From the sequence record PQ666542: DNA of 64,000 nucleotides; one strand, written 5' to 3'. The DNA is from Shigella phage sb4. The notes below the pieces were generated by a model, which worked only from the letters and a program-made list of their open reading frames with translations, was not told where the DNA came from and made no database searches. Position 1 is the stretch's first letter; the number at the start of each line of letters is the position of its first letter. The position numbers and the translations under genes were made by a program. Of the stretch, positions 30,279 through 30,938 are shown piece after piece.

Positions 30279-30487
30279 AACCATGTAACCTTTAAGCAAT
30301 ATTCTTCTACGTGCTGTTTACGACCTTTCTTATCAATAAAGGTATATTCAACGAATGTTCCAATATAATCTTTATCTACATCATGCGGACTATTACTTGG
30401 GCATTTAGTACGGCAAATGCGTTCCCATTGACGAATAATTTCTGCTTTGTTTTTAGGATCAAACGGATGCGGGTAATGTAGTTTCAT
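30275..30487 (-). CDS. hypothetical protein
   Basis: 70 aa ORF. Confidence 0.45.
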   Translation of the reverse strand: MKLHYPHPFDPKNKAEIIRQWERICRTKCPSNSPHDVDKDYIGTFVEYTFIDKKGRKQHVEEYCLKVTWL

Positions 30488-30938
30488 AATCCACCACTAT
30501 TAAATCAATATCAGGAGTAAACATGTCGATTAATTTAGAAACCTTTTCCCAATCTCCACCAGCAATACCACAACCTATGCGTGGAATATAAATTACGGGT
30601 TTAAACAAAAGGGTTTCTGCCTGTAGATTTAATTCTATCATACAGTTTACTAAAGCACCATAATCAAGATTAGGACCCGGTTCGTATTGCGTATACAGGT
30701 TATAGCACATACTAAATCCTGTAGGATTATGTTTAAAAACAATAGACATATCGCCTAATTTATCACGAGAACCGTACTCGGTAGTGGTTTTATCTATTTC
30801 TAAAATTTTTGGATAGGCTCTTGCTAATTGACCTGCTACGCCAGAGCCCATTGTGTGGAAGCAATTACACCCGTGCGCAATAATATTACCTTGAAGAAAT
30901 AGGGCGACAATATCGCCCTTGATATATTTTACAATCAT
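30459..30938 (-). CDS. macro-domain protein (ADP-ribose binding/processing fold)
   Basis: 159 aa; IAHGCNCFHTMGSGVAGQLA and PRIGCGIAGGDW resemble the two conserved macro-domain glycine-rich motifs. Confidence 0.6.
   Translation of the reverse strand: MIVKYIKGDIVALFLQGNIIAHGCNCFHTMGSGVAGQLARAYPKILEIDKTTTEYGSRDKLGDMSIVFKHNPTGFSMCYNLYTQYEPGPNLDYGALVNCMIELNLQAETLLFKPVIYIPRIGCGIAGGDWEKVSKLIDMFTPDIDLIVVDYETTLPASV

Follow-up and report, generated by a model that had tools for sequence, protein, structure and literature searches.

T-even phages escape DNA ADP-ribosylation defences through AdfN, which acts against DarTG1, and AdfM, which acts against DarTG2. AdfN, the companion factor, is the NADAR protein encoded by T4 gene 30.3 (PMC11825919). 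AdfM is the product of T4 tk.4—in a November 2025 preprint, HIDEN-SEQ of a T4 transposon library on a DarTG2 host returned tk.4 as the single significant hit, a clean deletion of the gene sensitised T4 to DarTG2, and the gene was named adfM, for anti-DarT factor Macrodomain, with AlphaFold similarity to the macrodomain of Mtb DarG (bioRxiv 10.1101/2025.11.20.689424). This evidence is genetic; enzymatic removal of ADP-ribose from DNA by T4 Tk.4 "seems likely" only, in the authors' wording (bioRxiv 10.1101/2025.11.20.689424). The A1pp/macro assignment of tk.4 orthologs has been in print since 2006 (PMC1524935). In the T4 reference genome, tk.4 lies directly downstream of vs and encodes 155 aa with the product name "phosphatase" and the note "contains A1pp phosphatase motif"; the database label 'phosphatase' derives from the A1pp domain name. 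The CmdTAC paper mentions neither tk.4 nor a phage macrodomain.

Outside the T-even phages, two characterised macrodomains serve for comparison. PhiKZ gp104, which was independently named AdfM, strips DarT2-made ADP-ribose from a TNTC oligonucleotide and rescues DarT2 toxicity, and its N23A mutant has reduced activity (Cell Reports 2026, PMC13309987). SCO6735 of Streptomyces coelicolor removes ADP-ribose from thymidine in DNA and confers protection against DarT; it carries Gln85 at the position of the DarG K80 and TARG1 K84 lysines and is without the Lys/Asp dyad (PMC9411070). Activity of SCO6735 is abolished by Q85A and Q85E, nearly so by N27S, and reduced by G128E; the proposed mechanism is water-mediated, with Gln85, locked by Asn27, positioning the distal ribose (PMC9411070).

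Here we describe the tk.4 ortholog of Shigella phage sb4, found in a stretch of 64,000 nucleotides of sequence record PQ666542 (hereafter the window). The gene occupies 480 nt at 30459..30938 on the minus strand, begins with ATG, and encodes a stand-alone macrodomain protein of 159 aa. On the minus strand the gene order is tk, tk.1, tk.2, two extra small ORFs, tk.3, tk.4, vs, vs.1, and regB, with tk at 28949-29530, vs.1 at 31275-31820, and regB at 31828-32289. The upstream neighbour is vs (valyl-tRNA synthetase modifier; 30935..31282, minus strand), which is 96.5% identical to T4 Vs and matches phrog_1256; the end of vs and the start of tk.4 share 4 nt. The downstream neighbour is the tk.3 ortholog (30275..30487, minus strand), which is 93% identical to T4 Tk.3 and matches phrog_2008; it begins inside tk.4 and shares the final 29 nt of that gene. 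With this slot between tk.3 and vs, and flanking genes 88-99% identical to those of T4, the sb4 gene is the positional ortholog of T4 tk.4. The two proteins align without gaps over 155 residues at 57% identity (E 5e-70), share their length class (155 and 159 aa) as well as H22, N25, Q84, G122, G124, and W130, and differ in that the sb4 protein has an extra 4-residue C-terminal extension overlapping tk.3.

The region between tk.2 and tk.3 holds a further difference from T4. About 370 bp of sb4 DNA (29903-30274) finds no alignment there and is absent from T4; the small ORFs of this region, both on the minus strand, encode a 58-aa protein (29899-30075; phrog_3452, E 3e-28) and a Cys-rich 48-aa protein (30153-30299; phrog_2306, E 7e-18).

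The overlaps of tk.4 with its neighbours are consistent with a single transcript, and the 4-nt overlap with vs suggests co-transcription or translational coupling. A candidate early sigma-70-type promoter lies just upstream of regB on the minus strand (32317..32345; TTTACT-17-TATAAT with an extended -10 TG, 10/12 matches) and could, tentatively, drive a regB-vs.1-vs-tk.4 string; promoter-like sites in the region are no more numerous than expected from shuffled sequence, and this site is a consensus match only. A separate feature is found inside the gene, where an 8-bp palindromic hairpin, AGGGCGAT-ATT-GTCGCCCT (30901-30919), falls in the 5' coding end (codons 7-13, KGDIVAL). It scans as terminator-like on both strands and is possibly incidental.

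The gene is common among T-even phages. Over its 480 nt it is 97.9% identical to Shigella phage Sfk20, and nucleotide matches occur in 581 phage records, nearly all of Tequatrovirus and other T-even phages. Searches at the protein level reach further, with tblastn matches in 2765 phage records and 794 homologs in the protein collection. GenBank labels for the gene vary, and include "macro domain-containing protein", "phosphatase", "Poa1p-like family protein", and "hypothetical protein". More distant relatives lie in other settings. In Pelagimonas phthalicica (SOAP01000002.1, 5400-6459), a 40% identical homolog stands alone among unrelated housekeeping-type genes; no DarT is found near it, and a 175-aa ORF just upstream is without a Pfam match. 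A remote relative of Tk.4 (30% identity) in a Microbacterium phage of 192 kb coincides with a feature labelled 'ADP-ribosyltransferase'; the label may reflect a macro-ART fusion, two adjacent genes, or an annotation error.

Assignment of the protein to the macrodomains is far beyond chance. The Pfam Macro profile (PF01661) scores 34 bits (gathering cutoff 22; E 3.2e-8) over profile positions 2-117 of 118, and PHROG 335 matches with E 4.8e-71. In a sequence search of the PDB, the sb4 protein matches Bacteroides BT1257 (4e-11), yeast Poa1p (1e-9), SCO6735 (9e-8), Mtb DarG (1e-5), and TARG1 (4e-3). A profile built from 58 homologs strengthens these to 3e-19, 1.3e-14, 1.2e-15, 1.5e-12, and 1.2e-17, respectively, and gives coronavirus Mac1 2e-3 only. 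An AlphaFold2 model made with the 58-homolog alignment (pLDDT 94.9, pTM 0.89) is predicted to adopt the three-layer alpha/beta/alpha macro fold, and Foldseek places TARG1 at the top (E 1e-9, TM 0.72-0.82), followed by BT1257, Poa1p, and DarG; the best matches are all macrodomains. The predicted ADP-ribose-binding loops are present, namely loop 1 with its Asn and GxG and the glycine-rich phosphate loop 2—N25, G31-S-G33, and G122-C-G124 vary little or not at all among homologs and align with the loops of DarG, TARG1, and BT1257. Because the profile, PDB, AlphaFold2, and Foldseek results agree, we place the protein in the ALC1-like (TARG1/DarG/Poa1p/SCO6735) class; its nearest relatives by both sequence and structure belong there, clearly apart from the MacroD, viral, and PARG types.

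An initial annotation, made from the letters alone, had reported a 159-aa ORF at 30459-30938 in the tk-regB interval and a macro domain with two glycine-rich motifs. The ORF and its interval stand as described, and the strand, which had been left unstated, is minus; the two motifs (HGCNCFHTMGSGVAGQLA and PRIGCGIAGGDW) are both present in the raw sequence, and the macro call agrees with the Pfam profile, the matches to solved macrodomains, and the high-confidence model. What had been overlooked is that this is the known T4-like phage gene tk.4 (adfM), annotated as A1pp/macro since 2006 and in the T4 RefSeq entry as well.

The active site of the protein is of a Gln type, judged from its alignments, and not of the lysine type found in DarG. 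A family HMM alignment took in DarG (Mtb and Taq), TARG1, BT1257, T4 Tk.4, and PhiKZ gp104, and invariance was assessed in the 58 homologs, which reach down to about 40% identity. Residues H22, G23, N25, C26, G33, N80, Y82, Q84, P119, G122, G124, and W130 are invariant in this set. The loop-1 motif HGCNCFHTMGSGVAGQLA (residues 22-39; 30822..30875, minus strand), identified by alignment, carries H22, N25, and G31-x-G33 and is the putative distal-ribose/phosphate loop for ADP-ribose. Its Asn25 (codon 30864..30866, minus strand) corresponds to SCO6735 N27, Taq DarG N22, and PhiKZ AdfM N23 by hmmalign, by its invariance, and by the published mutants; in DarG it is the Asn of the "TVN" motif. Gln84 (codon 30687..30689, minus strand), kept in 58/58 homologs, aligns with DarG K80, TARG1 K84, and the BT1257 Gln in both the profile alignment and hmmalign. 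Its equivalence to SCO6735 Gln85 comes through the BT1257, TARG1, and DarG alignments together with the statement in the SCO6735 paper, as the direct SCO6735 alignment spans the phosphate-loop segment.

That direct alignment covers the loop-2 motif, PRIGCGIAGGDW (residues 119-130; 30549..30584, minus strand), a putative phosphate-binding loop in which P119, G122, G124, and W130 are invariant. The motif is nearly identical to SCO6735 PRIGCGLAGGTW, with G122 and G124 at the positions of G126 and G128, and to BT1257 PRIGCGLAGGKW; it differs from T4 Tk.4, which has PRIGAGIGKGNW. Among the residues tested in SCO6735, H24, N27, Q85, G126, and G128 have invariant counterparts in the tk.4 family, including both the catalytic-site Gln with its positioning Asn and the two phosphate-loop glycines. 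BT1257, the best PDB match, has the same H-x-x-N ... K ... Q-x-G pattern. SCO6735 (PDB 5e3b) and its close relative BT1257 (2afc/2fg1) are thus Gln-type ALC1-like proteins in the manner of tk.4, but they are cellular and basic. The absent lysine could look like a problem, as K80A inactivates DarG (PMC5179494); the example of SCO6735 resolves it.

The likeness to SCO6735 does not extend to DNA contact. SCO6735 contacts DNA through K34 and K89, whereas the sb4 protein is acidic and has S32 and a QYxPGPN loop at these places; counterparts of the two DNA-positioning lysines were sought by alignment in the tk.4 protein and are absent. At the loop-1 position, family members have A, S, or G, where BT1257 and DarG (K29) have Lys; Q84 is followed by YEPGPN, so the +4 position is not Lys. 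Their loss does not exclude activity, because TARG1 and PhiKZ gp104 are active without the loop-1 Lys. The calculated pI of 5.05 equals that of active PhiKZ AdfM (5.05) and differs from TARG1, Taq DarG, and BT1257 (8.4-9, with BT1257 at 8.4).

The same alignments separate tk.4 from the other members of its class. Human TARG1/OARD1 (PDB 4j5r) uses the dyad K84/D125, for which the sb4 protein has Q84 and, by profile alignment, A126. Yeast Poa1p (PDB 6lfq) is an Appr1p phosphatase with a long insertion that is absent from the sb4 protein. DarG of DarTG2 (PDB 5m3i, 5m31, 7omu) has catalytic Lys80 (Taq, Mtb) in place of Gln84, and among the members of the ALC1-like class DarG proper stands furthest from tk.4 in profile score. 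The PADLOC DarG model gives the sb4 protein 28.5 bits over positions 3-144 of 329, compared with 133 bits for PhiKZ gp104, and the NCBIfam DarG equivalog, whose cutoff is 250 bits, gives it 29.2. No C-terminal DarT-binding domain is found in the tk.4 protein, which at 159 aa compares with about 330 aa for DarG, and no darT lies beside the gene, whose neighbours are vs and tk.3. An orphan DarG captured from a DarTG2 system was considered as the origin of tk.4 and rejected; the protein has neither the catalytic Lys nor the C-terminal domain, and its scores are far below the cutoffs.

PhiKZ gp104 resembles tk.4 in being a stand-alone phage macrodomain against DarTG2, in its loop-1 Asn (N23, equivalent to N25), and in its pI; unlike tk.4, it works inside a phage nucleus. 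Membership of the two proteins in one family was also rejected, with a BLASTP match of E 0.001 over 23 residues and gp104 clearly DarG-like—it belongs to DarG proper, with E 9e-25 to Mtb DarG and the FPTK lysine kept. The name AdfM therefore spans two independently recruited macrodomain types, one DarG-like and one Gln-type, that can barely be aligned. Annotators could easily be misled, as a DarG-type protein with a catalytic Lys and a Gln-type protein carry one name.

The tk.4 gene of sb4 is a divergent allele in an otherwise conserved backbone. Protein identity between sb4 and T4 is 95% for tk, 93% for tk.3, 57% for tk.4, 96.5% for vs, 98% for vs.1, and 95% for regB, and the genes from rI.-1 to vs.7 are 88-99% identical to T4 around this sharply bounded island (30440-30900). 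DNA identity to T4 drops from above 90% to 52-66% almost exactly within the tk.4 ORF, with tk.3 forming the 3' boundary of the divergent segment. Identity to T4 within the protein is uneven: residues 1-47, where the active-site loop lies, reach 85%, but residues 48-78 and 132-155 only 21-39%. Three allele types can be counted in the phage collection: the window type in about 320 records (at least 80% identity to it), the T4 type in about 224 (at least 90% identity), and a third, with 80-90% identity to T4, in about 159. T-even phages thus hold at least three strongly divergent tk.4 alleles, with the window type the commonest in GenBank. Such a pattern suggests that alleles were replaced through recombination or that the gene is under diversifying pressure. 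What is learned from T4 may therefore not apply to every tk.4 allele.

Starting from the ORF, the macro fold, the orthology to T4 tk.4, and the conserved active-site residues, all observed here, we favour the reading (at roughly 70%) that tk.4 encodes a macrodomain enzyme of the Gln type, which clears the ADP-ribose added by DarT2 to thymidine in phage ssDNA. The protein would probably be made early in infection, within the regB-vs.1-vs-tk.4 gene string. Host DarT2 would attach ADP-ribose to thymidine in single-stranded phage DNA, the tk.4 protein most likely removes it, and phage replication could then proceed in hosts that carry DarTG2. In the active site, Gln84, held by Asn25, would position the distal ribose together with the G122/G124 loop for water-mediated N-glycosidic cleavage, as proposed for SCO6735; such a route would differ from the lysine nucleophile of DarG and TARG1. 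The initial annotation had suggested that the protein counters DarT-like toxins, and the published genetics of the T4 ortholog, by HIDEN-SEQ and by knockout, back this suggestion, so the finding is already known and the sb4 gene is nothing new in kind. That the sb4 allele has the same activity and target as T4 Tk.4 is argued by analogy. Against this reading stand the 57% identity to T4, the missing DNA-contact lysines, the acidic pI, the weak matches to DarG models, and the allelic divergence.

Several of these points would be accounted for if the protein acted on DarT2 mainly as an inhibitor that binds the toxin, instead of or besides hydrolysis, although we regard this as quite unlikely. Catalytically dead SCO6735 Q85A does inhibit DarT in vitro, and more so than DarG K80A or TARG1 K84A (PMC9411070); an arms-race protein-protein interface would account for a tk.4 only 57% identical to T4 among neighbours at 88-99%, and for the concentration of the divergence outside the active-site loop, and an acidic protein without DNA-contact lysines fits a role in toxin binding. 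However, invariance of H22, N25, Q84, G122, and G124 in the 58 homologs speaks for selection for catalysis, nothing in the protein corresponds to the C-terminal DarT-binding domain of DarG, and PhiKZ AdfM acts catalytically (PMC13309987). Activity on substrates other than DNA has also to be weighed. T-even phages encode three ADP-ribosyltransferases (Alt/ModA/ModB), and macrodomains are generally versatile; tk.4 might reverse ADP-ribosylation of protein or RNA, whether the marks are those of the phage enzymes or of host ADP-ribosyltransferase defences. TARG1 and SCO6735 act on ADP-ribosylated proteins as well (PMC9411070), but tk.4 insertion counts are lowered specifically under DarTG2 (bioRxiv 10.1101/2025.11.20.689424), and nothing in this analysis ties tk.4 to a protein or RNA substrate, which makes this reading very improbable. 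With a small-molecule substrate, the protein would instead be a Poa1p-like ADP-ribose-1''-phosphate phosphatase, or a hydrolase of another small ADP-ribose derivative, serving metabolite clean-up or removing Thoeris signals, with the DarTG2 phenotype of T4 indirect or allele-specific. The relation to Poa1p is one of homology only, and the proposal in the initial annotation that ADP-ribose-derived immune signals (Thoeris) are degraded found no support in this analysis; we consider such an activity improbable.

Removal of ADP-ribose from thymidine, our preferred reading, may nevertheless leave room for an interaction component, as an enzyme that only has to recognise a reaction product would not be expected to diverge so strongly among alleles. 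A more speculative proposal, which we think unlikely, is that T-even AdfM is an independently recruited lysine-less (Gln-type) macrodomain, and not a captured DarG, whose rapid allelic turnover reflects a second, allele-specific job. This job might be the binding of particular DarT2 variants, or the fitting of ADP-ribosyl-thymidine beside glucosyl-hydroxymethylcytosine in the TNTC motif. If this were true, different tk.4 alleles would protect against different DarT2 systems or DNA-modification backgrounds.

For work on AdfM of the T4 type, the residues to mutate are Q84 and N25. K-to-A catalytic mutants and inhibitor logic based on DarG do not transfer to these proteins, because they use a SCO6735-like Gln site. 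Elsewhere in the window, the orthologs of vs.8 (33805-34395) and denV (34985-35395) are 81% and 74% identical to T4 and are more diverged than the genes around them; the vs.8 match begins only at T4 residue 24.
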